From Chloroflexota bacterium (GTDB taxonomy: Bacteria > Chloroflexota > Anaerolineae > Anaerolineales > UBA11858), in contig JABGRQ010000077.1 of NCBI GenBank assembly GCA_018648225.1, forward strand, positions 1,066-65,065: a DNA stretch of 64,000 nt. The letters run 5' to 3'. Below the pieces are notes generated by a model. It was given only the letters and a program-made list of their open reading frames with translations, ran no database searches and was not told where the DNA came from. The translations under genes were made by a program, and so were the position numbers. Of this stretch, positions 11,021 through 49,459 are shown in pieces. The stretch's first letter is position 1. Every line of letters starts with the position of its first letter.

Positions 11021-11021
11021 A

Positions 11022-11077
11022 GCCACAGAGAATACAGAGCGCCAAAAAAAGAAAAAAAACTCTGAGCTCTCTGTGGC
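11022..11077. repeat. CCACAGAG-family hairpin between convergent genes (likely bidirectional terminator)
   Basis: GCCACAGAGAATACAGAG...A-rich loop...CTCTGAGCTCTCTGTGGC. A second copy lies at 21012-21054. Confidence 0.7.
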
Positions 11078-11082
11078 TATTT

Positions 11083-13143: not shown

Positions 13144-13191
13144 TTCAATATTGGTAACTGCTCAGGCTAACGCCTTCGCAGATAGAATTCC

Positions 13192-13243
13192 AAAAAAGGG
13201 GGTGTGCCTGGGGGCGTACGCCCCCAGGCACACCCCCTTTTTT
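13192..13243. terminator. Perfect palindromic intrinsic terminator (A6 - 19-bp GC stem - T6)
   Basis: AAAAAA GGGGGTGTGCCTGGGGGCG TA CGCCCCCAGGCACACCCCC TTTTTT. It lies downstream of the minus-strand DUF1385 gene. Confidence 0.8.
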
Positions 13244-13388
13244 GGCCTCTTTTTGTTTGAGGCTGAGCAGTCACAAATAGTGACCCTAAAAGTTTTCGGC
13301 TGAGGACCCATCCGTTCAGCAAATTTGGGGCCGTATGAACAGAGTAGCACGGCTCTCTTTGCAAACCTTTGGGCTCGACTTCAGGGAG

Positions 13389-14270: not shown

Positions 14271-15649
14271 GATCCCGCCAGATTGAAGAAAAAGTGAATG
14301 AGTGCATTAATGCCGGTGTACCAAGTAGGCAAGTGCAACTTTTCGTTGGGGCCGTGCATATTGTCGGAAGGCAGGCCAAAACCAATATTGACCGATTCGA
14401 CGCCCAAAATTTCCTGGAAGGATGTGACGACCGGAACGCTGCCGCCTTCGCGCTTGAAGAGAGGTTTGACATTCCAGGCGGATTCGGCGGCTTGCAGATA
14501 GGCCTGCGCCCAGCGGGAATCACGGCTGCTGATTGATGCGGGCGCGCTTGCCATCTCGACGACTTCCCACCTAACCGTGGGGGGCGCGTGTTCCTCAAGA
14601 TAGTGCCATAATTGTTGGTGAACCTCATCGGGGTCCTGATCGGGTACCAGACGGCAAGAGATTTTCGCCATCGCATAGGCAGGCAGCACTGTTTTCGAGC
14701 CTTCGCCGGTGAAACCGGAGACCATGCCATTGACTTCCAATGTGGGGCGGGCACCAACTTGTTCTACGGGGGTGTACCCCTCCTCGCCAAACAGGGCAGG
14801 CGCGCCCGTATTGTGCATAAACCACTCAGCGGTGATCGGCAGGCGGGCCAGTTCGGCGCGCTCATCTTCAGAGAGCGGACGCACACTGTTGTAAAAATCC
14901 GGCAACGTAACGCGCCCTTTTTCATCATGCATCCCGGCGATCAGGTCGGCCAACACTTGTGCGGGGTTGTGTACAGCGCCGCCAAAAACACCTGAATGCA
15001 AATCGTGTGCAGGCCCCCACAAACGCAGTTCGAAATAGGCCAGCCCGCGCAGCGCGTAGGTGATGGTTGGCAGGCCTGGGGCGATCATACCGGTATCGGG
15101 GTTGAGGGCGAAATCGCAAGCCAGCATGTCTTTGTATTCTTCCATGAACTTGGGTAAATTCGGCGAGCCGATTTCTTCTTCGCCTTCGATCATGAATTTT
15201 ATATTGACGGGAAGTTTGCTGGTACGAATGATCGCTTCAGCCGCGTTGATGGTGGCGTCAACCTGGGCTTTCATGTCGGAAGCGCCGCGGGCATAGAGAT
15301 TTTCGCCGCGTATTTGTGGCTCAAAGGGGGCCGAATCCCATTTGTCGAGCGGCTCGGCGGGTTGTACGTCATAGTGGCCGTAGATCAGCACCGTGGGCGC
15401 ATCCGCTCCGGCAGAGAGATTTTCAGCATATACAACCGGATGGCGTGCCGTGGGGTAAATCTTGATATTCGCAAAATCCAGCGCCTTCAGGCGGTTGGCA
15501 ACCCATTTGGCGGTTTTTTGCACGTCAGCAGCCCGCTCTGGGTCAGTGGATACCGAAGGAATTGCCGAGAAGGCAATCAGATCATCCAGAAAGCGTTGTT
15601 TTTGTTCCTGGGCATACTTTAGCGCAGCATTGCGCAATTCTGTTCTCAT
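14267..15649 (-). CDS. M20-family dipeptidase/deacylase
   Basis: GGAG RBS before the ATG at 15649. IYGHYDVQPA, GASDMKA, MIEGEEEIGS. The track start at 15742 is an unsupported extension. Confidence 0.85.
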   Translation of the reverse strand: MRTELRNAALKYAQEQKQRFLDDLIAFSAIPSVSTDPERAADVQKTAKWVANRLKALDFANIKIYPTARHPVVYAENLSAGADAPTVLIYGHYDVQPAEPLDKWDSAPFEPQIRGENLYARGASDMKAQVDATINAAEAIIRTSKLPVNIKFMIEGEEEIGSPNLPKFMEEYKDMLACDFALNPDTGMIAPGLPTITYALRGLAYFELRLWGPAHDLHSGVFGGAVHNPAQVLADLIAGMHDEKGRVTLPDFYNSVRPLSEDERAELARLPITAEWFMHNTGAPALFGEEGYTPVEQVGARPTLEVNGMVSGFTGEGSKTVLPAYAMAKISCRLVPDQDPDEVHQQLWHYLEEHAPPTVRWEVVEMASAPASISSRDSRWAQAYLQAAESAWNVKPLFKREGGSVPVVTSFQEILGVESVNIGFGLPSDNMHGPNEKLHLPTWYTGINALIHFFFNLAGS

Positions 15650-15686
15650 GTATAAATCTCCATTAACTCTATATTGAAAAAAGCTA

Positions 15687-15766
15687 ACGCAAGGGCGCAA
15701 AGTGACAAAGCCGCAAAGGGAAAAATACCGAATTCTTTGCAACTTTGTTTCTTGGCGGCTTTGCGT
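15687..15766. repeat. ACGCAAAG-family hairpin repeat
   Basis: ACGCAAGGGCGCAAAGTGACAAAGCCGCAAAGG...CTTTGCAACTTTGTTTCTTGGCGGCTTTGCGT. Related copies lie at 28868 and 31974. Confidence 0.7.
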
Positions 15767-17612: not shown

Positions 17613-20450
<2,838 letters not shown>

Positions 20451-20525
20451 GTAATCAGGTAATTTGGGGTTTGGTTCTCTCAAATTTCTAGTTACCCAAT
20501 CCATAAGCACCTGTTATATATTTCC

Positions 20526-21011
20526 ATGACCCAATCCCCTCTCACTGAAATTTCAGTGAACTTGCCAGGCAAAATCTACCGCAGCGCGATGCCGTTTAGC
20601 AATTACGATCGGCTGGGCGAAGTTTGGCTTGCTTATCAGACCGCGAATGTCAAAGTTGTGGTTGTACTGACCGAAAAGCAAGAATATCTAGTACGCGCGC
20701 AGCGCGATTTACCTGCGTTCTACCATCAGGCTGGTATGGAAGTCATCGCGTACCCCATTCGCGACTATCACACCCCGGATGATCCTGAAGCATTTGCGGC
20801 TGTATTGCAAGCAGCCCATGCATATCTCATTGCCGGGCGCAATGTTGCCGTTCACTGTATGGCTGGCATTGGCCGCACAGGTATCTTCCTGGCGTGCCTC
20901 TCCCGGCTCGTACTGCAACTCGACGGTTCGGCTGCCATCCAATGGGTACGCGGCTACATCCCCGAAGCTTTGGAAAACGAAGAACAAGAAAACTTTGTAC
21001 TGAATTATTAG
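20526..21011 (+). CDS. Cys-based protein-tyrosine/dual-specificity phosphatase-like protein
   Basis: HCMAGIGRTG is the HCX5R(S/T) P-loop. The protein is 161 aa. Confidence 0.7.
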   Translation: MTQSPLTEISVNLPGKIYRSAMPFSNYDRLGEVWLAYQTANVKVVVVLTEKQEYLVRAQRDLPAFYHQAGMEVIAYPIRDYHTPDDPEAFAAVLQAAHAYLIAGRNVAVHCMAGIGRTGIFLACLSRLVLQLDGSAAIQWVRGYIPEALENEEQENFVLNY

Positions 21012-21054
21012 GCCACAGAGCGCACAGAGAGAAAACCTCGGTGTTGTCTGTGGC
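21012..21054. repeat. CCACAGAG-family hairpin
   Basis: GCCACAGAGCGCACAGAGAGAAAACCTCGGTGTTGTCTGTGGC begins immediately after the TAG stop. Confidence 0.7.
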
Positions 21055-21070
21055 AAACTTGGAGAACCCT

Positions 21071-22426
21071 ATGCTGATTATCAACGGAAAATTAATCACC
21101 TGGGAAAAGGAAAACCGCATTCTGGATGACGATCAAGCCATTCATATTGAAGATGGCGTAATCGTTGAAATCGGTCCGCAAAGTGAGTTGGAAGCGCGTT
21201 ACCCCGATGTGGAGCGCGAGGATGCGGGCGGCCAGTACGTGATGCCAGGCAATATTTGCGCGCACACCCATTTTTATGGCGCCTACGCCCGCGGAATGGG
21301 AATCCCCGGGCCTGCCCCCAAAGATTTTCCTGAAATTTTAGATAAGCTCTGGTGGCCGCTGGATATGGCCCTCGATGAAGATGCTGTGCGTTACTCGGCG
21401 CTGGTCATGCTCGTAGATGCCATCAAACACGGCACCACCACCCTGATCGATCATCACGCTTCGCCCAACTTCATCGACGGTTCGCTGGATGTTATTTCTG
21501 ACGCGGTCGATAAATCTGGACTGCGAGCGGTGCTGTGCTACGAAGTCACGGATCGCAACGGCGAAGAAGGGGCAAAGGCGGGGATCGAGGAAAATGTACG
21601 TTTTATCAAGAAGGTTGCTGGCAAAAAATCTCGTTTGCGCGCCACCTTCGGGATGCACGCCGCGCTGACTTTATCAGATGTCACCCTCGAGCGCAGCCGA
21701 GCAGCCATCCCCTCGGGTACAGGGTTCCACATCCATGTAGCCGAACACGAAGCCGATGAGTACGACAGTTTGCAAAAATATGGTATGCGCGTGGTGGACC
21801 GTTTGCACAAATTCGATATCCTGGGGCCAGATTCCATCGTTGGTCACGCCATCCATATTGATGCTCGTGAAGCCATATTACTCGCTGAAACCAATACCTG
21901 GGTGACGCATCAGGCGCGCTCGAATATGAACAACGGTGTTGGCGCGGCGCAAGTAGAGTCGTTGCTGCGGTTGGGTGTGCCGGTTTGTTTGGGAACGGAT
22001 GGCTTCTCATCCACGATGTGGGACGAGTGGAAAACAGCCTATCTGCTGCATAAGGTGATGACACGTGACCCGCGGCGCATGGGCGGTGGCGATATTGCCC
22101 AGATGGCGGCCTATAACAATGCCGCGCTGGCCGGACATTTCTTCAACGAAGCCCCGCTGGGTGTGCTGACCCCTGGTGCATTCGCCGATATTATTTTTGT
22201 GGACTATCATCCCCACACACCCATGAATGCTGGAAATTTGCCCTGGCAGATTATTTTTGGCTTCAACGAGAGCATGGTTACAACGACCATCGTACAGGGC
22301 AAAATGCTCATGCGTGATCGCGAATTGCTCACTCTTGACGAAGCTGCTATCGCGGCTGAAGCGCGTGCTATCGCACCGGATGTTTGGAAGCGCTATGAGA
22401 GTTATGTAGGCACATATTCCCGTTGA
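21071..22426 (+). CDS. ssnA: SsnA-like amidohydrolase (chlorohydrolase/aminohydrolase superfamily)
   Basis: GGAG RBS. MLIINGKLITWE..., the metal-binding HTHFY, HVAEHEAD, and GTDG near the C-terminal third. It lies next to the YgfM/XdhD-like pair, as ssnA does in E. coli. Confidence 0.7.
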   Translation: MLIINGKLITWEKENRILDDDQAIHIEDGVIVEIGPQSELEARYPDVEREDAGGQYVMPGNICAHTHFYGAYARGMGIPGPAPKDFPEILDKLWWPLDMALDEDAVRYSALVMLVDAIKHGTTTLIDHHASPNFIDGSLDVISDAVDKSGLRAVLCYEVTDRNGEEGAKAGIEENVRFIKKVAGKKSRLRATFGMHAALTLSDVTLERSRAAIPSGTGFHIHVAEHEADEYDSLQKYGMRVVDRLHKFDILGPDSIVGHAIHIDAREAILLAETNTWVTHQARSNMNNGVGAAQVESLLRLGVPVCLGTDGFSSTMWDEWKTAYLLHKVMTRDPRRMGGGDIAQMAAYNNAALAGHFFNEAPLGVLTPGAFADIIFVDYHPHTPMNAGNLPWQIIFGFNESMVTTTIVQGKMLMRDRELLTLDEAAIAAEARAIAPDVWKRYESYVGTYSR

Positions 22427-22497
22427 AGGTTATAGGTTGAAGGTGGAAAGCTAATTGAACACCCAACCTTCAACCTTCTACTTACAACTTTTAAACC
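22423..22497. repeat. TTGAAGG-family hairpin repeat overlapping the ssnA stop codon
   Basis: TTGAAGGTTATAGGTTGAAGGT...AACCTTCAACCTTCTACTTACAACTTTTAAACC. The TGA at 22424-22426 lies inside the first word. The element is homologous to 31347-31403. Confidence 0.75.
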
Positions 22498-22512
22498 GAT
22501 ATTGGAGTACAA

Positions 22513-23175
22513 ATGGCACAAGAGAAACTCGTCATCGCCGTCCTCGGCGGCACCGGCAAAGAAGGCCCTGGTTTGGCAATGCGCTGGGCGCACGCTGGAT
22601 ACAAAGTTATCATTGGCTCGCGCAAGGCAGAGAAAGCTGAAGCCACAGCGATAGAGCTTAATGAAAAGCTGGGCATCGATACGATCACTGGGTTGGCAAA
22701 TGAAGATGCCGCTCGCGTGGCTGACATCAGCGTTCTGACCGTAGTCGCTACGGCGCACCAGCCCGCAGTGACCGGGTTGAAGGATGCACTCAAGGGCAAA
22801 ATCATGGTGGATGCCACGGCGCGTGTGGATTTCCGAGATCCCAAACCACCGGCAGCCCCTGCGGCAGCCATCACCGCTCAAGAAATTCTTGGCCCCGACG
22901 TGCGTGTTGTGGCCGCTTATCAAAATGTGCCCGCTCACACGCTGAAGCACAACCTCGGCGGGAAGATCGCCACCGATGTGATGATTTGCGCTGATGATGT
23001 CAGTGCTGCCGAGCAGGTGATGGCACTTACCGAAGCCGCCGGGATGCAGGCTTACTACGCCGGTAGTTTGGCGAATGCCCTGACAGTGGAAGGGTTGACG
23101 GCCATCTTGATTAGCATGAACAAATATTACAAAGTGAAGACAGCCAGTATTCAGGTTTCGGGGCTGAGTTTATAA
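22513..23175 (+). CDS. fno: NADPH-dependent F420 reductase (F420H2:NADP oxidoreductase)
   Basis: IAVLGGTGKEGPGLAMRWAHAGYKVIIGSRKAEKAE Rossmann start typical of NpdG/Fno. GGAG RBS. Confidence 0.8.
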   Translation: MAQEKLVIAVLGGTGKEGPGLAMRWAHAGYKVIIGSRKAEKAEATAIELNEKLGIDTITGLANEDAARVADISVLTVVATAHQPAVTGLKDALKGKIMVDATARVDFRDPKPPAAPAAAITAQEILGPDVRVVAAYQNVPAHTLKHNLGGKIATDVMICADDVSAAEQVMALTEAAGMQAYYAGSLANALTVEGLTAILISMNKYYKVKTASIQVSGLSL

Positions 23176-23184
23176 TTCCTTGAA

Positions 23185-23973
23185 ATGCGTCTTACCCTCA
23201 CACCCCTTCCCGGTTATCCCCTCATACAGCCTGGCGATGACCTTACCTTGATGATTCTTGACGCGTTGCATTGTGCCAATGTAGAACTTGTCAACGGTGA
23301 TGTGCTTGTGCTAGCTCAGAAGATTGTTTCTAAAGCCGAGGGCCGGATGGTGGATTTATCTACAGTAGAACCTTCACAAACTGCACAAGATTTAGCCGCA
23401 GAAACCCATAAAGACCCGCGTGTCGTTGAGTTAATTCTGCAAGAGAGCCGCGAAATCGTGCGCACGCGACCTGGTCTGATCGTAGTCGAGCATAATCTGG
23501 GCTTTATTTGCGCCAACGCCGGGATTGACCATTCGAATATAAATTCCCCTTTCCCCGCGGGAGAGGGGCCAGGGGTGAGGGTTGATGAATTTGCCTTGCT
23601 CCTCCCCAAAGACCCCTCGGCCTCTGCCGCTGCGCTGCGTCAAAAATTGCACGCGACCACCGGCGCGCAGATCGGCGTGCTGATCATCGACTCGCATGGG
23701 CGCGCCTGGCGTGCGGGTACCGTCGGCATGACGATTGGCCTGTCGGGTATCCCCGGCGTGGAAGACCTGCGCGGGCAGCCTGATCTGTTCGGGCGTACGT
23801 TGCTAGTCACGCAGGTGGGTGTGGCCGATGAATTGGCCGCCGCGGCATCCCTGATGATGGGGCAGGCCGCCGAAGGCACTCCCGTTGTGCATGTGCGCGG
23901 TTTTCCCTATCCACTGCGCGAAGGTCAGTTTAATGAGTTGCTGCGTCCTAAAAACGAAGATTTATTTCGATAA
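23185..23973 (+). CDS. cofE: Coenzyme F420-0:L-glutamate ligase
   Basis: KIVSKAEGR, GFICANAGIDHSN, VLIIDSHGRAWR and DELAAAASL motifs. Confidence 0.85.
   Translation: MRLTLTPLPGYPLIQPGDDLTLMILDALHCANVELVNGDVLVLAQKIVSKAEGRMVDLSTVEPSQTAQDLAAETHKDPRVVELILQESREIVRTRPGLIVVEHNLGFICANAGIDHSNINSPFPAGEGPGVRVDEFALLLPKDPSASAAALRQKLHATTGAQIGVLIIDSHGRAWRAGTVGMTIGLSGIPGVEDLRGQPDLFGRTLLVTQVGVADELAAAASLMMGQAAEGTPVVHVRGFPYPLREGQFNELLRPKNEDLFR
23546..23581. repeat. GC-rich palindromic element inserted in frame in cofE
   Basis: CCCCTTTCCC-CGC-GGGAGAGGGG is a stem with one T:G pair, followed by CCAGGGGTGAGGG. The 36 nt equal 12 codons (part of SPFPAGEGPGVRV). Confidence 0.7.
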
Positions 23974-23996
23974 TTCATGCAGGATGGAGAGTATCT

Positions 23997-24380
23997 GTGA
24001 AAAACATCCCCGAAGAATATCACGACCTGTTACAAGACGACCGCAAAGCCTTTGCCGTACTCGCCACCATCATGGATGACGGCACGCCGCAGGCTACACC
24101 GGTTTGGTTCAGCTACGATGGCGAGTACATCTTGCTCAACTCGGTTAAAGGACGTATCAAAGATCGCAATATGCGCGCCCGCCCGCAAATTGCTCTGACA
24201 ATCTTCGCCCCCGCCGATATGTACCGTTTCGTGCAGGTGCGCGGCCGTGTGATCGAAATGACAGAGGCAGGCGGCTGGGATCATATCCATTACCTGGCGC
24301 AGACTTATATGGGTGTGGAGCGTTGGGAGCATGGCTCCCCCGACGACGTGCGCGTCATTTACAAGGTAGCTGCCGAATAG
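23997..24380 (+). CDS. PPOX-class (pyridoxamine-5'-phosphate-oxidase-like) probable F420-dependent enzyme
   Basis: GTG start after GGAG. Split-barrel pattern AVLATIMDDGTPQATPVWF...ILLNSVKGRIKDRNMRARPQIAL. F420 gene context. Confidence 0.7.
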   Translation: MKNIPEEYHDLLQDDRKAFAVLATIMDDGTPQATPVWFSYDGEYILLNSVKGRIKDRNMRARPQIALTIFAPADMYRFVQVRGRVIEMTEAGGWDHIHYLAQTYMGVERWEHGSPDDVRVIYKVAAE

Positions 24381-24381
24381 C

Positions 24382-24984
24382 ATGAACGACGCCCACCGCT
24401 TTCTGCGCTCGCGCCGCTCGGTGCGCCGTTTCGAGCCGCAGCCCGTGCCGCGGGCAACTCTCCATCGCATTCTGGAAACGGCTACCTACGCCCCTTCGGC
24501 GCATCATCGCCAGCATTGGCGTTTTGTGGTGCTGGAAACCCCCGAAGCGAAAACTCGCTTGGCTGATGCGATGGGCGCAGAATTTGAGCGCGATCTGACC
24601 GTTGACGGGCTGAATCTCGCAGACATGCAAGCGCAGGTGGCGCGGTCTCGCAATCGAATTTTGGGCGCACCGGTTGCGATTGTCTTATGTTTTGACTCCT
24701 CCGTCGGTGATGATTATGCAGATGCAGACCGTCAGCGTGCAGAATGGCTGATGGGCGCGCAGAGCGCTGCTCTGGCTGGATTACAGCTCTTACAGGCGGC
24801 TCACGCGGAGGGCCTGGGTGGGGTGTGGACCTGTGGGCCTTTATTTGCCCCCGAAGCGGTACGCCGCGCGCTGGGGATTCCATCCCGATGGGAGCCACAA
24901 GCCCTGATGTTGATCGGCCACCCCGCACAGATTCCCGCGCCGCGGCTGCGCAAACCGGTTGAAGAAGTAACGGTGTTTTTATGA
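24382..24984 (+). CDS. Nitroreductase-family protein (stand-alone equivalent of the FbiB C-terminal domain?)
   Basis: FLRSRRSVRRF...PSAHHRQHWRF nitroreductase signature. It lies between cofE and cofD, with a 4-nt overlap with cofD. Confidence 0.7.
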   Translation: MNDAHRFLRSRRSVRRFEPQPVPRATLHRILETATYAPSAHHRQHWRFVVLETPEAKTRLADAMGAEFERDLTVDGLNLADMQAQVARSRNRILGAPVAIVLCFDSSVGDDYADADRQRAEWLMGAQSAALAGLQLLQAAHAEGLGGVWTCGPLFAPEAVRRALGIPSRWEPQALMLIGHPAQIPAPRLRKPVEEVTVFL

Positions 24985-25931
24985 AAGTTGTTGCCCTTGC
25001 TGGCGGTGTCGGTGGCGCAAAGCTGGCCGATGGATTGGCACAGGCGCTGCCCCCCGAAGATTTAACTATCATCGTCAATACCGGTGATGATTTTGAGCAT
25101 TGGGGCCTGAAAATCTGCCCCGATCTCGATACGGTTTGCTACACTTTGGCAGGTTTGGCGAATCCGGAAACCGGCTGGGGCCGCGTGGACGAAAGCTGGC
25201 AGGCTTTCGAGAATATTGCCACGCTGGGCGGCGCAGACTGGTTCAGGATTGGCGACCGCGATCTGGGCACGCATATCGAGCGCACGCGGCGATTGAACGC
25301 CGGAGAAACTCTCAGTGCAGTGACGGCCGCTTTCTGCCGCGCCTGGGGCATTGGACCGCGCGTCCTGCCAATGAGCGATGATCCCATCCCGACGATGGTT
25401 CTCACCAATGATGGCGTTTTGCCCTTTCAGGAATATTTTGTCCATCAGCGTTGCGAGCCGCGCGTCAGCGGCTTCCGCTTCGAAGGTGTTGAGCAAGCCC
25501 AACCCGCTCCCGGAGCGCTGGAAGCCATCGAGAATGCCGATGCGGTTATTTTTTGCCCGTCCAACCCGTGGGTGAGTATCAACCCTGTTTTGGCCGTCCC
25601 CACTCTGAGGTCTGCTCTCGCCGCTCCCCCAACTTTGGGAGAAGGGGACCGGGTGAAGGTCGCCGCGGTCTCTCCCATCATCGGCGGGCAGGCGCTCAAA
25701 GGCCCGGCGGCCAAAATGTACGCCGAACTGGGTATTCAGCCCTCGGCGATAGCTGTCGCACAGCACTATCAGGATTTGCTTACTGATTTTATCTTTGACA
25801 CGCTCGATCAGGAGCAAGCGGCGGCGATCGGTTCCTTAGGGATGCGTGCGTTGGTGACAGATACGGTGATGAAAACAAAAGATGATCGAAGACGTCTAGC
25901 AGAGGAAGTTCTTCAGTTTTTGACCAGGTAA
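24981..25931 (+). CDS. cofD: 2-phospho-L-lactate (or EPPG) transferase
   Basis: MKVVALAGGVGGAKLADGL, NTGDDFEHWGL, and CPSNPWVSINPVL. Confidence 0.9.
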   Translation: MKVVALAGGVGGAKLADGLAQALPPEDLTIIVNTGDDFEHWGLKICPDLDTVCYTLAGLANPETGWGRVDESWQAFENIATLGGADWFRIGDRDLGTHIERTRRLNAGETLSAVTAAFCRAWGIGPRVLPMSDDPIPTMVLTNDGVLPFQEYFVHQRCEPRVSGFRFEGVEQAQPAPGALEAIENADAVIFCPSNPWVSINPVLAVPTLRSALAAPPTLGEGDRVKVAAVSPIIGGQALKGPAAKMYAELGIQPSAIAVAQHYQDLLTDFIFDTLDQEQAAAIGSLGMRALVTDTVMKTKDDRRRLAEEVLQFLTR

Positions 25932-25983
25932 CTTTTGATACAATTGCAGCAAGGAAAGTTCAGGAAAGGACACTAAATACTCG

Positions 25984-26595
25984 ATGACACTTTGGGCAAT
26001 TGTCCCCGTAAAACCGCTCCGCCGTGGGAAATCGCGACTTTCCGCGGTCTTTTCGGAAGATGAGCGCACAGACTTGAACCGGTATTTATTAGAGAATACC
26101 GTCCGCACGTTAAAAAAAATCCCCGATATTGAACATGTTTTAGTCGTTAGTCGGGATCCGAGGGCTTTAGCAGTAGCGCGTGATTTGGGCGCTCGCACAG
26201 TTCAGGAGAATGGGCAGCCGCATCTGAATGTGGCGCTCACTCGTGCAACTGTTGTGGCAAAAACCTATGCCACGCGTGGTGTTCTGATCTTGCCTTCCGA
26301 TTTGCCGTTGGTTACTGAAGAAGATATTCAGGTGATGCTGGATCGGGCCGTTGACCCCCCTGTTGTTGTGTTGGCTCCTGATAGGCACAGGCAGGGCACG
26401 AATGCCTTGCTGGTGTGCCCGGTCGGGTTGATTGAGTATCATTATGGTGACGATTCGTTTGAAAAGCATTGTGCACTGGCGCGCGAAAAAGGCGCCCGCG
26501 TAGAAATTTGTGAACTCCCCTCGCTAACGCTGGATTTAGATCGCCCGGAAGACCTGGTTTTACTGGAAGAACGTTTGGATATCAAAATTGATTAA
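25984..26595 (+). CDS. cofC: 2-phospho-L-lactate/PEP guanylyltransferase
   Basis: LWAIVPVKPLRRGKSRL start motif. LILPSDLPL and GTNALL. Confidence 0.85.
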   Translation: MTLWAIVPVKPLRRGKSRLSAVFSEDERTDLNRYLLENTVRTLKKIPDIEHVLVVSRDPRALAVARDLGARTVQENGQPHLNVALTRATVVAKTYATRGVLILPSDLPLVTEEDIQVMLDRAVDPPVVVLAPDRHRQGTNALLVCPVGLIEYHYGDDSFEKHCALAREKGARVEICELPSLTLDLDRPEDLVLLEERLDIKID

Positions 26596-26610
26596 CTTTT
26601 TTGGAGGCTG

Positions 26611-27612
26611 ATGATGTTAGACCGTGTAGCTTTGTACTTGCAAGATTCCCATGATTTGCGTGATGGTTTGGACTACGTGAAATACGCCGAAGAGCGCGGC
26701 TTCGAGGCTGTTTGGCAGGCAGAATCGCGGCTCGTGCGTGACGCGATTGTCCCGATGGCGGCTTACGCCGCAGTGACCGAGAAGATTAAAGTTGGCTCCG
26801 GCGTACTCAACAACTGGACGCGCAATGTGGGCCTGTTAGCGGCGACTTTTCTGACGCTGGATGATTTGGCCCCCGACCGGGCAATTTTGGGCATTGGCGC
26901 CTGGTGGGATCCGTTGGCGCAAAATGTAGGTATCACGCGCCGCAAACCGCTGCTGGCGATGCGCGAAACCATTGAAGTGGTACGGCGTTTGTTGGCGATG
27001 GAACGGGTGACGTTTCATGGAGAATTCCATCACGTAGATGGTATTGAACTGGACGTGGTGCATGGTCGCCGAGAGCCGCGCAATGTGCCGATTATGATCG
27101 GCGCCACCGGCCCCAAGATGATGGAGCTGACCGGCGAAATTGCGGATGGCGCAGTGCTGAATTATTGTGTGGATCCGGAATATAATCTCAAAGCGATGGA
27201 TTTGCTTGAAAAAGGCGCCAAGAAAGCTGGCCGTTCTATTGACGATATTGACCGTCCGCAGTTGATTGTTTGCTCGGTGGATTACGATCATGATAAAGCG
27301 ATTGAAACCAGCAAAATGCTGCTCTGCCAATATATGGCGCAGCAACCGCATATTGCCAAAGCTTCCGGTGTTTCGGATGACGTAGTAGCCGAGATTCAAT
27401 CCATTTTGGGTTGGCCTGCCACGCATGAACAAATTGATAGCGCCAAGCACCTTGTTCCGGATGATTTGGTGCATCGCATCACTGCCTCGGGTACGCCCGA
27501 TGAAGCTCGCGCCAAAGTGCAGGAATATGTAGATAATGGCGCTACCTGCCCGATTCTGTACCCGGTGGGCGGGGATTTCAAACTCCTGATTGATGCGTTT
27601 GCAACCAAATGA
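26611..27612 (+). CDS. LLM-class (luciferase-like) F420-dependent oxidoreductase
   Basis: [21 protein letters not shown]...[11 protein letters not shown]...LGIGAWW TIM-barrel LLM pattern. GGAGG RBS. Confidence 0.8.
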
Positions 27613-28076
27613 CCAAACAACCCAACTCGAAGAATTGTTTTGTCTGTGGCGTAGAAAATGAACACGGCTTGAAATTGAATTTTTATGAAACGGCTCCGGG
27701 CGAAATCAGCGTTGACTATATCGTCCCGGAGCATTTTCAGGGCTATCCCGGTGTTGTGCATGGCGGTATTGTCGCATCTTTGGTAGATGAAGTCCTTGGA
27801 CGTGTTCACATGGGCAGCAAACCGGAGAACCCGCGATTTATGTATACCGTCAAACTTTCTGTGCAGTATCGCAAGAATGTGCCTACCGGCGAGCCGATTA
27901 AGATCGTTGGCTATGCCGAAGAAAGCAAACGCCGCACGGCCAAATCAACCGCTAAAATCTTCAACGCCGCAGGTGAAATATTAGCCGAGGCTGAAGCTGT
28001 TTTGGTGAATGTGCCTGCTGAAAAACTGGGTGATGTTGATCTGGAATCCCTTGGCTGGAAAATATACCCCGACTGA
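27609..28076 (+). CDS. PaaI/hotdog-fold thioesterase
   Basis: [18 protein letters not shown]-terminus and [11 protein letters not shown] hotdog core. ATGA overlap with the LLM gene. Confidence 0.7.
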
Positions 28077-28095
28077 TAAACCGAATGGAACGAAT

Positions 28096-28869
28096 ATGAT
28101 TATAGAATATCATCGTCCTGAAACAATCGAAGCCGCGCTGGCCTTGTTGGCGCGCAAAGAGCCGCGTACCGTCCCGCTGGGGGGCGGATCGGTACTCAAT
28201 CAGCCATCAGATATTCCGGTGGCCGTGGTGGATGTGCAATCCCTGGGGCTGAATCAGATCGCCGCGCGCGGCAACAAGCTCGAAATTGGGGCCGCGGCCA
28301 CCTTACAGGCGTTGTTGGATACCCCGGAAGCGCCACTCGCGCTCAAAGACGCCATCCGGCATGAGGCGGCCTATAACCTTCGTAATATGGCTACCGTGGC
28401 CGGAGCTATAGTCGCTGCCGATGGGCGCTCGCCCTTTGCCGCGGCCATGCTGGCGTTGGGCGCAGAACTGGTCTTCGCCAACGAACGTACATTGGCGCTG
28501 GGTGAATTTTTGCCCTTGCGCGCGAACGCTTCAGCCAGTGAACTCATTTCGAAGATTTCCATTCCCCTGAATATAAAGCTTTCTTATCAATACGTCGCCC
28601 GCACTCCGGCAGATTTGCCGATCGTATGTGCTGCTGCGGCGCAGTGGTCTTCAGGGCGCACCCGGTTGGTCTTGGGCGGATTTGGCAACTCCCCATTACT
28701 GGCGCTAGATGGCCCCAATGCCCTTGGCGCGCCCATCGCGGCGCGGGATGCGTACCGCGAAGCGGGTGACCAATGGGCCGGTGCGGCCTACCGCAGCGAT
28801 GTGGCTGAGACATTGGCGAGGCGTGCCATTCAGGCTTTCGGGGCTTCGGAAAAAAAAGAACAAAATTAA
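28096..28869 (+). CDS. XDH-family FAD-binding-type subunit, set 2 (short, divergent)
   Basis: YHRPETIEAALALL...PLGGGSVL, ATVAGAIVAADG, and C-terminal AAYRSDVAETLARRA. It is 257 aa. Confidence 0.75.
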   Translation: MIIEYHRPETIEAALALLARKEPRTVPLGGGSVLNQPSDIPVAVVDVQSLGLNQIAARGNKLEIGAAATLQALLDTPEAPLALKDAIRHEAAYNLRNMATVAGAIVAADGRSPFAAAMLALGAELVFANERTLALGEFLPLRANASASELISKISIPLNIKLSYQYVARTPADLPIVCAAAAQWSSGRTRLVLGGFGNSPLLALDGPNALGAPIAARDAYREAGDQWAGAAYRSDVAETLARRAIQAFGASEKKEQN

Positions 28870-28920
28870 CGCAAAGACGCGGAGACGCAGGGACTAACCG
28901 ATTTTTTGCGACTTTGCGTT
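28868..28920. repeat. ACGCAAAG-family hairpin between the two XDH set 2 subunit genes, overlapping the stop codon
   Basis: AACGCAAAGACGCGGAGACGC...GCGACTTTGCGTT. The TAA of the FAD-subunit gene (28867-28869) overlaps the first base of the element and lies within the flank AAAATTAACGCAAAG that is shared with 31967. Confidence 0.75.
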
Positions 28921-28945
28921 TTGCTTGTAGCAGGAGACTGCGCGT

Positions 28946-31900
28946 ATGAAGATCAACTTACACATCAATGGCATTGACCATTTTCTAGAAATTCTCCCCG
29001 GCGACAGCCTGCTCAAGGCGCTGCGCGGGTTAGGCTATCACAGCGTCAAATTTGGCGACGAACAGGGACTGACTGGTTCGGATACAGTGCTGCTCGATGG
29101 CCGCCCGATCAATGCGGGTGTCTATCTCGCCGCGCAGGCCGAAGGCCATCAAATCGCCACGTTGGAAGCCCTCGGGGAACATCCCGATCAGGGTTGGAAG
29201 AAAACTGACGGCCTGCACCCCTTGCAGCAATCGTTTATCGAAACCGGTGCCATTCAGTGCGGATACTGCACCCCGGCGCAAATTCTGGCCGCCAAAGACC
29301 TCGTCGAGCGACAAGCCAACCCCACCGAAGCCGAAGTGCGCGATGCTCTCTCCGGGGTTTTATGCCGTTGTACCGGATACAAGAAACCCGTCCAGGCGGT
29401 GATGCGTGCCGCGGCGGTTTTGCGCGGTGAAGATGTTGAGCCGATTGACACCCCCGCGCCAATCCCCGCTCCCACGGAGTGGTTGCCTGCTCCCGAAGAT
29501 GGTGCCGCGTCTGCTCCTTTTAGGGGTGATCACGGTATTCCCCAGGTGGATACGCGCACCCGCGTGATGCCACAAATCACCATTGCCCCCCAGGAAGAAG
29601 AACTCCGCATTGTTGGTAAACCCGAACCCAAAGTGGATGCTATCAAACTGGCGCAGGGCAAACCCGCTTTCGCCGCTGATGTGGAAATGCGCGGCATGTT
29701 ATATGCCAAAGTGCTGCTCAGCCCGCACGCACATGCGCGCATCAAAGCTATTGATGCCAGCGCCGCGCGTCAACTACCGGGCGTGGCTGCCGTGCTGACG
29801 CATGCCGATATTCCGCGCGTAGTTTATTCCACCGCCGGGCAATCGCACCCCATCCCGGGGCCGCTGGATTGTTTCTCGCTGGATACCAAAGTCCGTTTCG
29901 TTGGAGACAGAGTCGCCTTTGTTGCCGCCGAAACCCCCGAGATCGCCGATCACGCCCTGAGTTTAATTCAGGTAGATTATGAAGTTCTCGAACCGTTGCT
30001 GGATACACGTCAATCCATGTTACCTGGCGCGCCCATCCTCCACGATGAACCCGATTATGTGAACTTCGCCGATTCGGACCCCTCCAAAAATTTAGCGGCT
30101 GAAATTCGCATTGATATTGGCGACCTCGAAAAAGGTTTTTCCGAGGCCGACCGAATTTTCGAAGCCGAGTACGAAGTCTCCAAAGTGCAGCAGGCGCATA
30201 TTGAACCGCATGTCGTCGTGACCTATTGGGACGAAGACGACCGTTTGGTGATTCGCACCAGTACGCAGGTGCCTTTCCATGTGCGCCGTATGTTGGCCCC
30301 GGTGCTGGGTTTGCCAGTCAAGCGCATCCGTGTGATCAAGCCGCGCGTCGGTGGCGGATTTGGCGGCAAGCAGGAAATGTTGGGCGAAGATATTGCCGGG
30401 CATCTGACCATTGTTACCGGACGGCCTGTGTTGTACGAATACACGCGTGAAGAAGAATTTATCGCTTCACGCTCGCGGCATCCGATGCGTATTTACATGA
30501 AAACCGGCGTCAAGAACGATGGCACGATTACGGCCAATGCCATGTATGCCCTCAGTGATACCGGTGCTAATGGGGCGCATGCCCTGACCGTGACCGGCAA
30601 CACCGGGCACAAGGCGATGGCGCTGTATGTGGGTGATGGTGAGTATCGCAAGGAACCCAATATCCAGTTTAATGCCGATATTGTCTACACCAACCATCCC
30701 CCCAGTGGAGCCTACCGCGGCTATGGTGTGCCGCAAGGTTTTTGGGCGGTTGAGCGTCATATGGACAAGATCGTGGACGCGCTGGGTTTTGACCCGATTG
30801 AATTTCGCTTGAAGAATGCCCTGCGCGCCGGGGAACTGCACCCCTTCAGCACCGCCTGGAGCGAGGGACGCGAACCCCGCCCGGAGACGATTGAAACCAA
30901 TGGTTTGGAAGAATGTGTACGTCAGGGTAAGGCCGCGGTTGGCTGGGATCAGAAATTTGGCAATCCCGAATGGCAGGCGGTTCCTGGTAAGCCGCATCTG
31001 CGCCGCGGTATTGGTATTGCGATGATGATGCAAGGTACGGCTATTCCGTACCTTGATATGGGTGGGGCGAGCATCAAAATGAATGATGATGGCTCGTTTA
31101 ATCTGCTCATTGGGGCCACCGATCTGGGCACCGGATCGGATACCGTGCTGGGGCAGATGGCTGCCGAAGTACTGGGCTGTACTCTGGACGATATGATTGT
31201 CTACTCATCGGATACAGATTTCACGCCCTTTGATGTAGGCGCCTACGCGTCTTCGACAACCTATATTTCGGGCGCGGCGGTGGTCAACGCGGCGCAGAAG
31301 GTGGCCGAGCGCATTAAAGTGCGTGCGGCGGGGATGTTTAATAATCTTGAAGGTTCACAGGTTGAAAGTAACCTTCAATCTGCCAACATTCAACTTGCAA
31401 ACCGTCAGGCAATCGCCCCCGATGGCAGGACGCTTAGATTATCCGAAATCGCCCTCCACACACTCCACGCCGAAGATCAAGAACAGATTATGGCGGTGGG
31501 CTCATATTACTCGCCGGTTGCGCCGCCACCCTTTGCCGCACAATTTGCTGAAGTGACTGTGGACATGGAGACTGGTCAGATCGTGGTTGACAAACTGGTT
31601 ATGGCGGTTGATTCGGGTGTTATTGTCAATCCGATTACAGCCTCCGGCCAGATTGAAGGCGGTATGGTGCAGGCACTGGGATATGCGGTTTGCGAAGAAA
31701 TGGTGTATGATGAACTCGGTCAACCGCGCGAGCGCGATTTCCGCGATTATCATATTTTTATGGCGCACGAGATGCCCGAATTGGACACCATCTTTGTTGA
31801 AACCTACGAACCGAGTCATCCCTTTGGGATTAAGGCCGTGGCTGAAATCCCACTGGATGGCGTGGCCCCCGCAGTTGGGAATGCTGTTTTCAACGCTGCC

Positions 31901-31975
31901 GCCGTGCATATAGACGCTAATCCTGTCACCCCCGAGAAAGTTTGGCAGGCGTTGCAGGATAAGAAGAAAAATTAA
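28946..31975 (+). CDS. XDH-family fused ferredoxin-like + molybdopterin-binding subunit, set 2 (first [2Fe-2S] ligands missing)
   Basis: AGGAG RBS. The second cluster is intact (CGYCTPAQ...CRCTGY). GGGFGGKQE, YRGYGVPQG and IKAVAE. The N-terminal motif reads GDEQGLTGSDTV...AG where Cys ligands are expected. Confidence 0.9.
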   Translation: MKINLHINGIDHFLEILPGDSLLKALRGLGYHSVKFGDEQGLTGSDTVLLDGRPINAGVYLAAQAEGHQIATLEALGEHPDQGWKKTDGLHPLQQSFIETGAIQCGYCTPAQILAAKDLVERQANPTEAEVRDALSGVLCRCTGYKKPVQAVMRAAAVLRGEDVEPIDTPAPIPAPTEWLPAPEDGAASAPFRGDHGIPQVDTRTRVMPQITIAPQEEELRIVGKPEPKVDAIKLAQGKPAFAADVEMRGMLYAKVLLSPHAHARIKAIDASAARQLPGVAAVLTHADIPRVVYSTAGQSHPIPGPLDCFSLDTKVRFVGDRVAFVAAETPEIADHALSLIQVDYEVLEPLLDTRQSMLPGAPILHDEPDYVNFADSDPSKNLAAEIRIDIGDLEKGFSEADRIFEAEYEVSKVQQAHIEPHVVVTYWDEDDRLVIRTSTQVPFHVRRMLAPVLGLPVKRIRVIKPRVGGGFGGKQEMLGEDIAGHLTIVTGRPVLYEYTREEEFIASRSRHPMRIYMKTGVKNDGTITANAMYALSDTGANGAHALTVTGNTGHKAMALYVGDGEYRKEPNIQFNADIVYTNHPPSGAYRGYGVPQGFWAVERHMDKIVDALGFDPIEFRLKNALRAGELHPFSTAWSEGREPRPETIETNGLEECVRQGKAAVGWDQKFGNPEWQAVPGKPHLRRGIGIAMMMQGTAIPYLDMGGASIKMNDDGSFNLLIGATDLGTGSDTVLGQMAAEVLGCTLDDMIVYSSDTDFTPFDVGAYASSTTYISGAAVVNAAQKVAERIKVRAAGMFNNLEGSQVESNLQSANIQLANRQAIAPDGRTLRLSEIALHTLHAEDQEQIMAVGSYYSPVAPPPFAAQFAEVTVDMETGQIVVDKLVMAVDSGVIVNPITASGQIEGGMVQALGYAVCEEMVYDELGQPRERDFRDYHIFMAHEMPELDTIFVETYEPSHPFGIKAVAEIPLDGVAPAVGNAVFNAAAVHIDANPVTPEKVWQALQDKKKN
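31347..31403. repeat. TTGAAGG-family element inserted in frame in the XDH set 2 gene
   Basis: TTGAAGGTTCACAGGTTGAAAGTAACCTTCAATCTGCCAACATTCAACTTGCAAACC is 57 nt, or 19 codons (LEGSQVESNLQSANIQLAN). It aligns with the intergenic copy at 22423-22497 minus its loop. Confidence 0.7.
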
Positions 31976-32249
31976 CGCAAAGCCGCAAAGGAATAAGGAC
32001 GCGAGAAGAAAATTTTAAAATATTGTATGGGTCAATAGTAGCTTGAACAGCAAAACCATCATTGTCATTCCGAGCGCAGCGAGGAATCCCTTTGAAGCAG
32101 TATGATTCATCACTTGCATAGGCACTGTTCAACATTCCGGTTAAAGATTCTTCACTCCGCTGCGCTCCGTTCAGAATGACGAGTGTTCAAGCTTTTGTTG
32201 ACAATTTTAAAAATATCTTTCCGACTTTGCAACTTTAAGCCCTTGCGTT
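31974..32249. repeat. ~275-bp nested composite palindrome (ACGCAAAG-family arms enclosing a GTCATTC-family hairpin at 32064-32180)
   Basis: Paired segments are AACGCAAAGCCGCAAAGG/...CCCTTGCGTT, ATTTTAAAAT/ATTTTAAAAAT, GTCAA/TTGAC, AGCTTGAACA/TGTTCAAGCT, and GTCATTCCGAGCGCAGCGAGGAATC/GATTCTTCACTCCGCTGCGCTCCGTTCAGAATGAC. Confidence 0.75.
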
Positions 32250-32277
32250 GATGTTTTGTGCGCCCGGAGACTACGTT

Positions 32278-33624
32278 ATGAATAATCGCACCTATGTTAT
32301 TGGGCACGTCAATCCGGATACTGATTCGATTGCTTCGGCAATGGGATATGCCTGGTTGTTACGTGAGCGCGATGAGATCGATGCTATCGCCGGGCGGGTG
32401 GGATCGATGAATCCGCAAACGCATTGGGTACTGGATCGGTTGAATTTGGAAGCGCCATTGCTGTTGCCAGATGCCTCGCCGCGCTTCAAGAACGTGGCTC
32501 GTCGCATGGATACTGCGTTGCCGGATAGCCCGTTGCGAGATGCCTGGGAAATCGCCAATCGCACCGGCGGTGTTGCGGCGATCATCAATAGCGATGGCAC
32601 GCCATATGGCCTACTAACGGGGCTCACCCTATTTTCGTTTTTTGAAGAATATGTCGGTCCGCACCCCAATCGCCAGGAAATGCGCATTTCGGATTTGCTG
32701 GATGTGCCTTGTCACCAGGCCACGGATACTGGCGTGCCGCGCTTCCCGGCTAATGCTCGCATCCGCGATGCACTGCCGCGTATTTTTCGTGAGGAACGTA
32801 ATAACTTCCTTGTAACGGATGAAAATGGTTTATATATTGGCGTTTGCCGCCAGCGCGATTTGCTCAATCCGCCGCGCCTGCGTGTGGTTTTGGTGGATCA
32901 TAACGAAGCTGAACAGGCCCTCGGTGCGCTGGATGAGGCTGATCTGGTTGAAATTATCGATCATCATCGTCTGGGGAATCCGCCCACGCGCGAACCGATC
33001 CGTTTTACGGTAGATGTGGTGGGCAGCACCAGTACACTGGTCACCGAGCGTATCGAGGAAGCTGGATTGAGCGCGCCACCTGAAATTGCGGGTGTGCTGT
33101 TGGCAGGCCTCATCTCAGATACGTTGATCTTGACATCGCCGACCACCACCGAGCGAGATCAGCGCGCCGCTGAGCGTCTGGGACGTTGGGCTTTCTCCTG
33201 GGGGAGTCCCCTCAAAGATGAGGATATGAATTCCTATGGAAAATTGGTTTTGGAATCCGGGGCGGGTCTCTCCACGCGCGATCCCGAAGAAATAGCAAGC
33301 GGCGATATGAAAACCTATGAGACCACTGGGTATAAATTCTCGGTGTCTCAGGCAGAAGTGACGGATTTAATGCAACTCAATAAACACCTGGAGTCACTTT
33401 CAAACGCGTTGGATCAATTACGTATTGCCCGCGCTTTGGATTTTTCGCTGCTCATGGTTACCGATGTGGTGCGTGGCTCCAGCCGCATTTTACTGAGTAA
33501 TCCGCCCCCCATTCTGGATGATTTGCCGTACCCGCGGCAAGATGATGGTACGCGTCATGCCAAAGGGGTAGTCTCACGCAAAAAACAATTATTACCTGCG
33601 GTTTTAGGCTTATTGGGCAGTTAG
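32278..33624 (+). CDS. CBS-domain-containing DHH/DHHA2 family inorganic pyrophosphatase-like protein
   Basis: GGAG RBS. VIGHVNPDTDSIASA, VLVDHNE and IIDHHRLG (DHH motifs), with a CBS-like insert between them. Confidence 0.75.
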   Translation: MNNRTYVIGHVNPDTDSIASAMGYAWLLRERDEIDAIAGRVGSMNPQTHWVLDRLNLEAPLLLPDASPRFKNVARRMDTALPDSPLRDAWEIANRTGGVAAIINSDGTPYGLLTGLTLFSFFEEYVGPHPNRQEMRISDLLDVPCHQATDTGVPRFPANARIRDALPRIFREERNNFLVTDENGLYIGVCRQRDLLNPPRLRVVLVDHNEAEQALGALDEADLVEIIDHHRLGNPPTREPIRFTVDVVGSTSTLVTERIEEAGLSAPPEIAGVLLAGLISDTLILTSPTTTERDQRAAERLGRWAFSWGSPLKDEDMNSYGKLVLESGAGLSTRDPEEIASGDMKTYETTGYKFSVSQAEVTDLMQLNKHLESLSNALDQLRIARALDFSLLMVTDVVRGSSRILLSNPPPILDDLPYPRQDDGTRHAKGVVSRKKQLLPAVLGLLGS

Positions 33625-33668
33625 GATTATGCAAAAGACCACCGAAATATCGGAGGTCTGAGGTTCGA

Positions 33669-39421: not shown

Positions 39422-39437
39422 TGATTACAAAGAACCG

Positions 39438-39489
39438 CGGATAAACGCTGATACACGCGGATGAAACGACAAACAATCAGCGTTTATCC
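39438..39489. repeat. CGCGGAT-word hairpin inside the XDH set 3 operon
   Basis: GGATAAACGCTGAT - 23-nt loop - ATCAGCGTTTATCC is a perfect 14-bp stem. The loop repeats the word CGCGGATGAA. Confidence 0.7.
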
Positions 39490-39528
39490 GTGTTCATCTG
39501 TGGTTTCTTGAAAGCAAAAGGAAATACT

Positions 39529-45894: not shown

Positions 45895-45956
45895 AGACCT
45901 CCGAGGTTTTCGCGAAGCACTTCAAGTGTCGCGAAGAAGCAAAACCTCGGAGGTCT
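45895..45956. repeat. AGACCTCCGAG-family hairpin (terminator-like), copy A
   Basis: AGACCTCCGAGGTTTT...AAAACCTCGGAGGTCT is a perfect 16-bp stem with an inner CTTC...GAAG stem. Confidence 0.8.
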
Positions 45957-49396: not shown

Positions 49397-49459
49397 AGAC
49401 CTCCGAGATTTTTTGCGTAGCACTTCGAGCCGGGCGAAGAAGCTAAATCTCGGAGGTCT
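49397..49459. repeat. AGACCTCCGAG-family hairpin, copy B (bidirectional terminator between convergent genes)
   Basis: AGACCTCCGAGATTT...AAATCTCGGAGGTCT followed by TTTTTT. The G-to-A change in the stem relative to copy A is matched by a C-to-T change in the partner arm. Confidence 0.8.

Follow-up and report, generated by a model that had tools for sequence, protein, structure and literature searches.

Rickettsia palindromic elements (RPEs) are described as palindromic, non-autonomous sequences of ~100 to 150 bp with conserved unique sequence, which lie between genes and in frame in unrelated housekeeping genes, form several families per genome, and are confined to Rickettsia and relatives (PMC10969869). 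Dispersed arrays of 7-nucleotide (nt) units are another kind of small repeat; the accounts cited here cover TAACTGA of Beggiatoaceae, Cyanobacteria, and Bacteroidetes (PMC4679880), GGGAATC of Xanthomonas and GGGGA(C/T)T of Nostoc (PMC4692102), and the STRRs of cyanobacteria, and the TAACTGA study reports a single inverted set (PMC4679880). We analyzed a 64,000-nt stretch of contig JABGRQ010000077.1 from a Chloroflexota bacterium (Anaerolineales; below, the window), in which a hairpin built of GTTGAAG-like heptamers occupies an intergenic spacer and a second copy lies in frame within a gene of the xanthine dehydrogenase (XDH) family. Our literature search did not find the GTTGAAG unit, nor the ACGTCAG, ACAGGTA, and CGCAAAG units that appear below. 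We consider in-frame colonization of a permissive protein loop by dispersed heptamer-array elements the likely explanation of this locus.

The coding segment and its intergenic counterpart

The host gene (positions 28946 to 31975, plus strand) was assigned from its open reading frame (ORF), its translation, and the Pfam domains of its orthologues (PF01799, PF01315, PF02738, and PF20256) as a fused 2Fe-2S and molybdopterin-binding subunit of the xanthine dehydrogenase/aldehyde oxidase family. It is intact at 1009 amino acids, in agreement with the original prediction, made from the letters of the DNA, that a hairpin repeat of intergenic type had entered this gene without breaking it. The segment singled out there, 57 nt at 31347 to 31403, lies within this frame (codon phase starting at 31346) as the 19 codons LEGSQVESNLQSAN IQLAN. 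Its 5' arm (31347 to 31369, plus strand, recognized by sequence and periodicity) reads TTGAAGG TTCACAGG TTGAAAG T in units of 7, 8, and 7 nt, with the unit order GTTGAAG-GTTCACAG-GTTGAAA. The 3' arm (31370 to 31387, plus strand, recognized by sequence and fold) reads AACCTTC AATCTGCC AAC and encodes NLQSAN; within it, AACCTTCAA is the exact complement of TTGAAGGTT at 31347 to 31355. Self-identity peaks at lags of 7 (z = 3.4), 8 (z = 2.6), and 15 nt (z = 4.1), and the repeat unit is 7 + 8 = 15 nt, or five codons, which preserves the reading frame without a TGA. Three units of a perfect (GTTGAAG)n array are enough to place TGA in each frame, whereas (CTTCAAC)n, its complement, has no stop in any frame; this accounts for the TCA in the second unit of the 5' arm, at the place where a perfect unit gives TGA in frame, and for the better-kept 3' arm.

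The remainder of the segment, ATTCAACTTGCAAACC (31388 to 31403, plus strand, encoding IQLAN), can pair with CAGGTTGAA of the 5' arm, its partner in the minimum-free-energy fold being 31358 to 31366. Orthologue alignments identify it as conserved coding sequence: the position is I-[QKR]-L-x-[ND] in essentially all of the 120 database orthologues and 80 metagenome loci compared, insert-free ones included, and is therefore not part of the gain. In the relative L004, the IQLAN codons are the same as in the window though the rest of the loop is wholly different. The extent first proposed for the repeat thus holds for 31347 to 31387 and fails for 31388 to 31403. The 3' arm, for its part, is similar to codons that encode N-[VL]-[QE]-P-x-[ND] in distant orthologues and, judging from that likeness, may be partly ancestral.

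The intergenic counterpart lies at 22423 to 22497 (plus strand), as first reported, and ends 16 nt 5' of an ATG at 22513. It comprises a 5' arm of TTGAAGG TTATAGG TTGAAGG TGGAAAG (22423 to 22450, from sequence and lag-7 periodicity), a 12-nt hairpin loop that fold and alignment show to be missing from the coding copy (22451 to 22462), and a 3' arm of CCAACCT TCAACCT TCTACTT ACAACTT TTAAACC (22463 to 22497, from sequence, fold, and periodicity). Its self-identity peaks at lags of 7 (z = 6.2) and 14 nt (z = 4.3). The last ~10 nt (TTTTAAACC) look homologous to flanking sequence of this spacer in L001, a relative that bears another array there, and the last unit or so of the 3' arm is probably spacer flank and not element. 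Judged from sequence, the element truly shared by the two sites is about 31347 to 31387 against 22423 to 22490, which trims the end of the intergenic copy as first drawn. Its first unit supplies the TGA stop (22424 to 22426) of the upstream ORF (20894 to 22426). That ORF ends ...VGTYSR* (22418 to 22426), and its L001 counterpart ends ...VGTY* with TAA, two codons earlier; the array therefore rewrote the last two codons and the stop of the neighboring ORF.

Both copies are GTTGAAG-like heptamer arrays opposite CTTCAAC-like heptamers, and their 5' arms are identical at 20 of 22 positions with one gap (22423 to 22444 on the intergenic side). The two sites score 45.2 in a local alignment in which a long gap at the missing loop costs little. 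The background, formed by the intergenic element against all 6,732 57-nt windows of the 64 kb on both strands, has a mean of 12.1 (standard deviation, 3.2), and the best unrelated site reaches 24. The proposed resemblance to an intergenic hairpin thus survives statistically scored alignment. A relaxed periodicity census found 6 segments, compared with 1.2 in shuffles. It could still be argued that this is an ordinary variable loop whose codons resemble one intergenic hairpin by chance, since by our estimate an all-against-all search of 64 kb should give some 20/22 matches and the window has two copies only. Against this, the score is far beyond the empirical background, heptamer periodicity is present at both sites, the family is confirmed at 120 or more loci, and the signature peptide recurs in other in-frame copies (see below); coincidence is, in our judgment, barely credible. 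Alignment and census together make the window segment a member of a dispersed array family.

Each copy folds better than its own shuffles (z = -3.5 for the coding copy and z = -3.7 for the intergenic copy). One reading of the coding fold is that selection maintains an RNA or DNA structure (a translational pause for domain folding, an RNase or processing site, or attenuation in the operon), the likeness of the two sites then reflecting shared function. The three substitutions that separate the window and L001 segments all lie outside the 9-bp core stem, and the synonymous positions of IQLAN (CTT, GCA, and AAC) are unusually constant among orthologues. Avoidance of the stem by three substitutions is, however, expected by chance about 1 time in 3; most orthologues have no hairpin here, and those that do use unrelated sequences, L305 carrying a non-hairpin element. 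No Rfam 15 covariance model matched 20000 to 33000 at E <= 1, and the two distinct sequences are too few for covariation. We regard selection for structure in the coding copy as quite improbable. The intergenic copies, by analogy with the REP sequences discussed below, may plausibly act as intercistronic RNA hairpins; a scan of 22000 to 23000 for intrinsic terminators found no terminator-like site at 22423 to 22497, where the stem is AT-rich and TTTT follows 15 nt after it.

The XDH loop and its history among orthologues

The arms fall within a variable loop of 16 codons (NNLEGSQVESNLQSAN; 31340 to 31387, plus strand), which orthologue alignments place after the helix that ends ...AAGMF and before the strand IQL. 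The best solved homologues of the host protein are the alpha subunit of 4-hydroxybenzoyl-CoA reductase (1rm6) and CoxL (8uem). The helix-to-strand connection has 6 residues in CoxL (AAGML-EASIAD-LEW) and in paralogue set 1 of the window (KY-DQPPDN-IRF), compared with 16 in the host protein, so that ~10 codons are extra relative to the canonical 6 or 7. An AlphaFold2 model, which served for local secondary structure only (whole-protein mean pLDDT, a mediocre 61.9), has a helix at residues 776 to 800, coil at 801 to 815 with confidence lowest at 804 to 807, and a strand from 816; the insert falls in the coil. Among the orthologues, loop length ranges from 6 to 45 residues. A quick neighbor-joining tree with the loop masked groups the nearest sequences as ((L001,L106),(window,(L004,L105))), and the next lineages (L110, L109, L107, and L108) have array-free loops of 6 to 13 residues. 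Therefore, the ancestor of this small clade gained about ten codons. The insertion is not recent, because it is common to L001, a relative at 90% identity. By these comparisons, the segment is an addition to the protein relative to the paralogue, the solved homologues, and the nearest orthologues, as the original prediction had expected of paralogue alignment.

Similar peptides occur in more distant orthologues (71 to 73% identity), reading kvaGLNVEPeN, nerskVEGlkVEPan, and lqVEGSpVEvphVEdnleisn; the DNA of these holds GTT GAA and, in L145, also GTTGAAGGTTCACCGGTTGAA. Had such orthologues lacked the repeat family, the case for an insertion would have suffered. In the tree, the sister of L145 (L178) has a 7-residue loop, as does that of L167/L179 (L184), and both positions are far from the window clade; GTTGAAG-type arrays lie in intergenic DNA of L145 (near 3000) and L167 (at 16153). 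Thus, because they stand apart beside short-loop sisters and have intergenic arrays of their own, L145 and L167/L179 represent parallel gains; common ancestry of their peptides with that of the window was considered and rejected on the same placement.

These orthologues bear on a more serious alternative, growth in place, in which the loop expanded from its own ancestral codons, slippage duplicating 15-nt (pentapeptide) units with GTT GAA in them, and hairpin-templated copying of the downstream AAC-xTT-CAA-CCT...ATT-CAA-CTT made the 5' arm. The likeness to the intergenic element would then reflect a shared slippage-prone vocabulary and not common descent. Distant orthologues do have GGT TTG AAx GTT GAA CCT xxx AAC xTx AAA CTT GCA AAC CG at this place, 15-nt tandem units occur in L145, L167, and L001 (VEGSP/VEVPH/VEDNL; KVEGL/KVEPA), and the reverse complement of the 3' half of the L001 segment is colinear with its 5' half at 24 of 34 positions in a hand alignment. 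Among the long simple sequence repeats of bacteria, moreover, heptamers are reported as the commonest unit, and slippage of the polymerase has been proposed to cause them (PMC4679880, PMC4692102). On the other side, the nearest outgroups have no GTTGAA array at all, and the stop-avoiding GTT GAA GGT TCA (VEGS) recurs in unrelated genes. The whole L004 loop has been replaced by an unrelated family with cognates 600 bp away, ACAGGTA-type loops have no local seed, and the bipartite copy of L305 cannot form locally. We therefore consider growth in place unlikely.

The replacements just named come from other array families in the same loop. L004 and L105, relatives at 94%, have an unrelated 21-codon loop of CGTCAAG/GTCAGxx units. 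This loop matches both an ACGTCAG-type hairpin in the L001 spacer homologous to 22423 to 22497 and a copy just after the L004 XDH stop; against the L001 and L004 spacers it scores 39.8 to 42.4, compared with 11.3 +/- 2.9. Since the GTTGAAG-type loop is common to L001 and the window, an exchange of that family for the ACGTCAG type must have occurred in L004. ACAGGTA-type arrays occupy the loop in L130, L136, L148/L152, L168, and L158, each beside short-loop sisters. Several loops have cognates in their own flanks that exceed a cross-locus null: L148 (47 versus 24), L152 (46 versus 34), L168 (40 versus 26), L130 (34 versus 24), L136 (34 versus 25), L167 (33 versus 25), and L145 (32 versus 26).

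The 45-residue insert of L305 consists of (CGAGTCRG)n followed by (ACCAATWT)n, arrays that are not complementary to each other, and both are found again, ordered alike, in a spacer located 5 kb upstream (score, 83). Because these non-complementary arrays form one bipartite element in loop and spacer alike, growth in place cannot produce it. L305 is the best evidence that whole elements get copied between sites rather than grown independently, and the comparisons for L148 and L004 likewise indicate copying between sites. Counted on the tree, there were at least three separate gains of the GTTGAA type, at least five of the ACAGGTA type, and one replacement. By these counts and scores, the loop has been occupied independently and repeatedly by three or more array families with cognates in their own genomes. 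A second in-frame hot spot is seen in the linker between the 2Fe-2S and molybdenum domains, with ACAAGTA-type or ACCAATWT-type arrays in L168 (~9140 to 9190), L136 (~1830 to 1870), and L305 (6511 to 6560; the ACCAATWT type in this last); L305 also has CGCGGAT-type arrays 3' of its XDH gene.

Copies in other genes, spacers, and genomes

The family was described at the outset as intergenic in type. Intergenic copies do exist, but in-frame copies in other genes are common. They are present in proteins confirmed by Pfam: in PriA (CPNCETPLTLH[VEGSKLKVQDSTFNMRPST]LLCHHCGY), in LigA (IP[VEGLRLKVESQPSTLNLKP]PQYLVVRGE), in ArgRS between the catalytic and DALR domains, and in an ABC transporter between the membrane and ATPase domains. 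Solved structures leave clean gaps at the insert sites, of 15 to 18 residues in LigA and 14 in PriA. A protein signature, VEGS..(L)KVE..STFNLQPS, recurs, and the window peptide LEGSQVESNLQS (LEGSQVES NLQS) fits it; the stop-avoiding GTTGAAGGTTCA reading (VEGS) recurs in the in-frame copies of PriA, ArgRS, and other genes. These alignments establish in-frame copies in other essential genes. In L246 (Anaerolineales UBA2395), a frame of 1193 amino acids encodes a fused ABC transporter, CydDC-like by eye, with apparent separate in-frame copies at domain boundaries (VEGPKPSTFNLQL, RPSTFDLQPN, QVEDLPTSKPTQQPSTLNLQPST, and LTFDLRPSTS).

For a census in other genomes, one genome per species was scanned with the pattern TTGAAGGTT N3-6 R GTTGAA N0-30 TTCAAC, which fits both window copies and L001. 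At least 120 loci matched, compared with ~17 expected by an arithmetic, not empirical, estimate of chance; the claim that a repeat family exists is thereby borne out. The first 80 of the matches listed comprise 43 from Chloroflexota (Anaerolineales, Anaerolineae, Villigracilis, Aquidulcis, Chloroflexus, Thermoflexus, and others), 11 from Bacteroidota/Rhodothermota, 9 from Cyanobacteria (Moorena, Waterburya, and Allocoleopsis), 7 from Verrucomicrobiota, 5 from Acidobacteriota, 2 from Planctomycetota, and 3 others. Among the matches listed, several genomes have 2 to 5 loci each, and 78 of 129 hits lie outside long open frames. An extra 3'-arm unit within 21 nt outside the pattern accompanies 79 of the 120 matches listed (66%), and an extra 5'-arm unit 34 of 120, each against a background of 3.4%. 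Common 5' units are GTTGAAG, GTTGAAA, GTTGCAG, GTTACAG, and GTTAAAG, facing CTTCAAC, TTTCAAC, CTGCAAC, CTGTAAC, and TTTAAAC. As a negative control, the looser hairpin TTGAAGGTT N5-35 AACCTTCAA matched 100 stretches in a viral collection, among which extra units stood at background; those viral matches were rejected as family members, being chance hairpins without extra units. The sequence GTTGAAGGTTATAGGTTGAA also occurs in a Saprospiraceae genome (L216). Moorena spp. (L189, L208, L253, and L258) have long arrays, such as (AGTTGAAGGTTACCA)x3, and large open frames with runs reading NLQPSNLQPTNLQP; the same heptamer is therefore common to Cyanobacteria and Chloroflexota.

Spacer arrays usually start at a stop codon or directly 3' of one, and syntenic spacers differ in array family between genomes whose XDH genes are 90 to 94% identical. 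The XDH|DHH spacer holds a CGCAAAG-type array in the window and L001 and an ACGTCAG-type array in L004; the FAD|XDH spacer holds the CGCAAAG type in the window and L004 and a TGCATTC type in L001; and the F420-ligase|PNPOx spacer, filled in both relatives, has no array in the window. Between contigs 98.5 to 99.9% identical, we found no unit-level indels in arrays, and for this reason the arrays are not contingency loci. Near 17021 of L004, the sole indel of at least 3 nt relative to L105 (98.55% identical) is a 5-nt GGAGA repeat-unit difference, which would shift the frame if inside the called gene and is possibly an assembly error.

Further repeats were observed in the window. Hairpins of CGCAAAG/CTTTGCG arrays with 7- to 8-nt units lie at 28870 to 28945, 31976 to 32248, and 15686 to 15748; they begin directly after the stop codons of XDH and of the gene for the FAD-binding subunit, and the one after XDH has a ~200-nt center holding the inverted repeat CATTGTCATTCCGAGCGCAGCGAGGAATCCC ... 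CTCCGCTGCGCTCCGTTCAGAATGACGAG, as if another element had entered its loop. A 62-nt hairpin element, AGACCTCCGAGGTTTT...AAAACCTCGGAGGTCT, has 82% identical copies 3' of genes at 45895 to 45956 and 49397 to 49459, and the DHH|XdhC spacer has a short GACCACCGA...TCGGAGGTC hairpin (33636 to 33662) that is possibly related to it. At 13187 to 13248 there is an intergenic 62-nt inverted repeat, CCAAAAAAGGGGGTGTGCCTGGGGGCGT|ACGCCCCCAGGCACACCCCCTTTTTTGG, with 31-nt arms, no loop, and a perfectly complementary central 56 nt. Gene-end hairpins at 11021 to 11078 and 21009 to 21057 have CCACAGAG / CTCTGTGG arms of a further unit family. Finally, a hairpin with a 19-bp stem, ACCGCGGATAAACGCTGAT ... ATCAGCGTTTATCCGTG (39434 to 39494), is nearly unchanged in L004 (~15630 to 15700) and overlaps the GTG listed as the start of XDH set 3.

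Probable colonization of the loop and comparison with described repeats

We picture the element as tandem GTTGAAG-like units of 7 to 8 nt followed by complementary CTTCAAC-like units, the DNA or transcript of which would fold into a long, register-tolerant hairpin. Heptamer-array hairpins of several coexisting families would occupy the spacers between cistrons in this Anaerolineales-type genome and in related ones, and copies would occasionally be laid down inside genes. The survivors would be those that add a multiple of three bases, avoid TGA, and hit a tolerant surface connection; such requirements explain the 15-nt (7 + 8) unit, the TCA codon, and the helix-to-strand location. Arrival was presumably by ectopic copying. 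As its route we favor template switching, or else gene conversion, between sites that bear arrays, in the course of replication or repair; the alternative is a transposition or other dedicated activity. After arrival, unit slippage and hairpin-templated (quasi-palindrome) correction may have reshaped the arms. The encoded peptide, LEGSQVES NLQS, would be a passenger needing no function of its own. Taken as a whole, we regard this account as the best explanation and a probable one.

Several observations weigh against colonization. Motif and repeat searches across the 64 kb examined of the source genome yielded no family copies beyond the two described, and the lack of unit-number polymorphism at 98.5 to 99.9% identity indicates that array activity is not high. 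Comparison of filled with empty sister loops revealed no convincing target-site duplication or microhomology, the sisters being only 70 to 75% identical, and neither conserved termini nor an associated transposase was seen in the loci examined. Loop centers vary between copies of one genome, unlike those of classical MITEs (miniature transposable elements with inverted repeats) or REPINs. The unit vocabulary is limited, so that two arrays of one family can look alike without a direct donor-recipient relation. GTTGAA (V-E) and TTCAAC (I/F-Q-L) are mutual reverse complements present in distant orthologues, and the V-E-P-x-N of the group with 11-residue loops fits a general XDH-family motif; given this overlap with ancestral codons, a local origin of the window copy by inverted and 15-nt tandem duplication is possible.

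A bolder extension of colonization is that the arrays form a distinct, undescribed class of self-propagating DNA that several phyla have with the same GTTGAAG unit, copied by a dedicated or hijacked activity that recognizes the array or hairpin, with families overwriting one another at preferred sites and remodeling loops and linkers of essential enzymes. We hold this as a possibility, with more doubt than belief; if true, protein loops outside Rickettsia would have a general route of evolution that resembles the RPE one. Colonization as such would already matter in other ways. Chloroflexota have an abundance of heptamer-array hairpins, and at least five further phyla have them as well. These hairpins offer a natural experiment on which protein positions tolerate insertions and, with one loop, many independent gains, and one family replacement, a traceable system for repeat spread. 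They also carry a warning for annotation and alignment, as VEGS..KVE..STFNLQPS peptides in Chloroflexota proteins are repeat-derived and not homologous features.

Among described systems, classical MITEs and REPINs probably fit poorly: the arms could count as inverted repeats, but no parent insertion sequence is known, and the variable centers together with the lack of duplications, conserved ends, or a nearby transposase argue against such an assignment. REP sequences (repetitive extragenic palindromes) and their BIME and REPIN assemblies, mobilized by RAYTs (PMC3116915, PMC3733652), are likewise short imperfect palindromes at gene ends in operons, with many copies and several families per genome. 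REPs have a conserved GTAG or CGTC head, are near-identical 20- to 40-bp palindromes within a family, and are extragenic and RAYT linked (PMC3116915, PMC3733652). In contrast, the copies here lack the GTAG/CGTC head, start with array units, vary in unit order, number, and center, and are commonly found in frame in coding sequence; no RAYT (Y1 transposase) was noticed in the gene calls for the loci retrieved, whole genomes not having been searched. The coding palindromes of Nematomorpha mitochondria (PMC6649704) share inverted repeats in coding sequence with both arms translated, but they are long, perfect, and animal mitochondrial, are not heptamer arrays, and have no intergenic counterparts.

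The closer parallels are the two with which we began. Like RPEs, the elements have palindromic copies both between genes and in frame (in XDH, PriA, LigA, ArgRS, and the ABC transporter), with a peptide tolerated at the surface and the gene unbroken. They differ from RPEs in being ~40 to 80 bp long, in their 7- to 8-nt tandem units and variable centers, in their occurrence in Chloroflexota and other phyla, and in the repeated hits on one loop, with one family replacing another. We judge that there is no sequence relation, a separation drawn from length and composition and not from alignment with an RPE consensus. Like STRRs and other heptamer arrays, the elements are 7-nt tandem units, which in related genomes are dispersed, mostly between co-oriented genes near stop or start codons with an intragenic minority, at locations that differ between sister species and with the same heptamer in distant phyla; the described arrays, however, are same-strand direct repeats, whereas those here are paired complementary arrays that form a hairpin. 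Hitherto, in-frame palindromic repeats have counted as something peculiar to Rickettsia, and heptamer repeats as an oddity, little understood, of cyanobacteria and a few other groups. The two phenomena meet here, in an element that, by analogy, behaves like the Rickettsia palindromic elements and is built like the cyanobacterial STRR-type heptamer repeats, while by sequence it is a member of neither.

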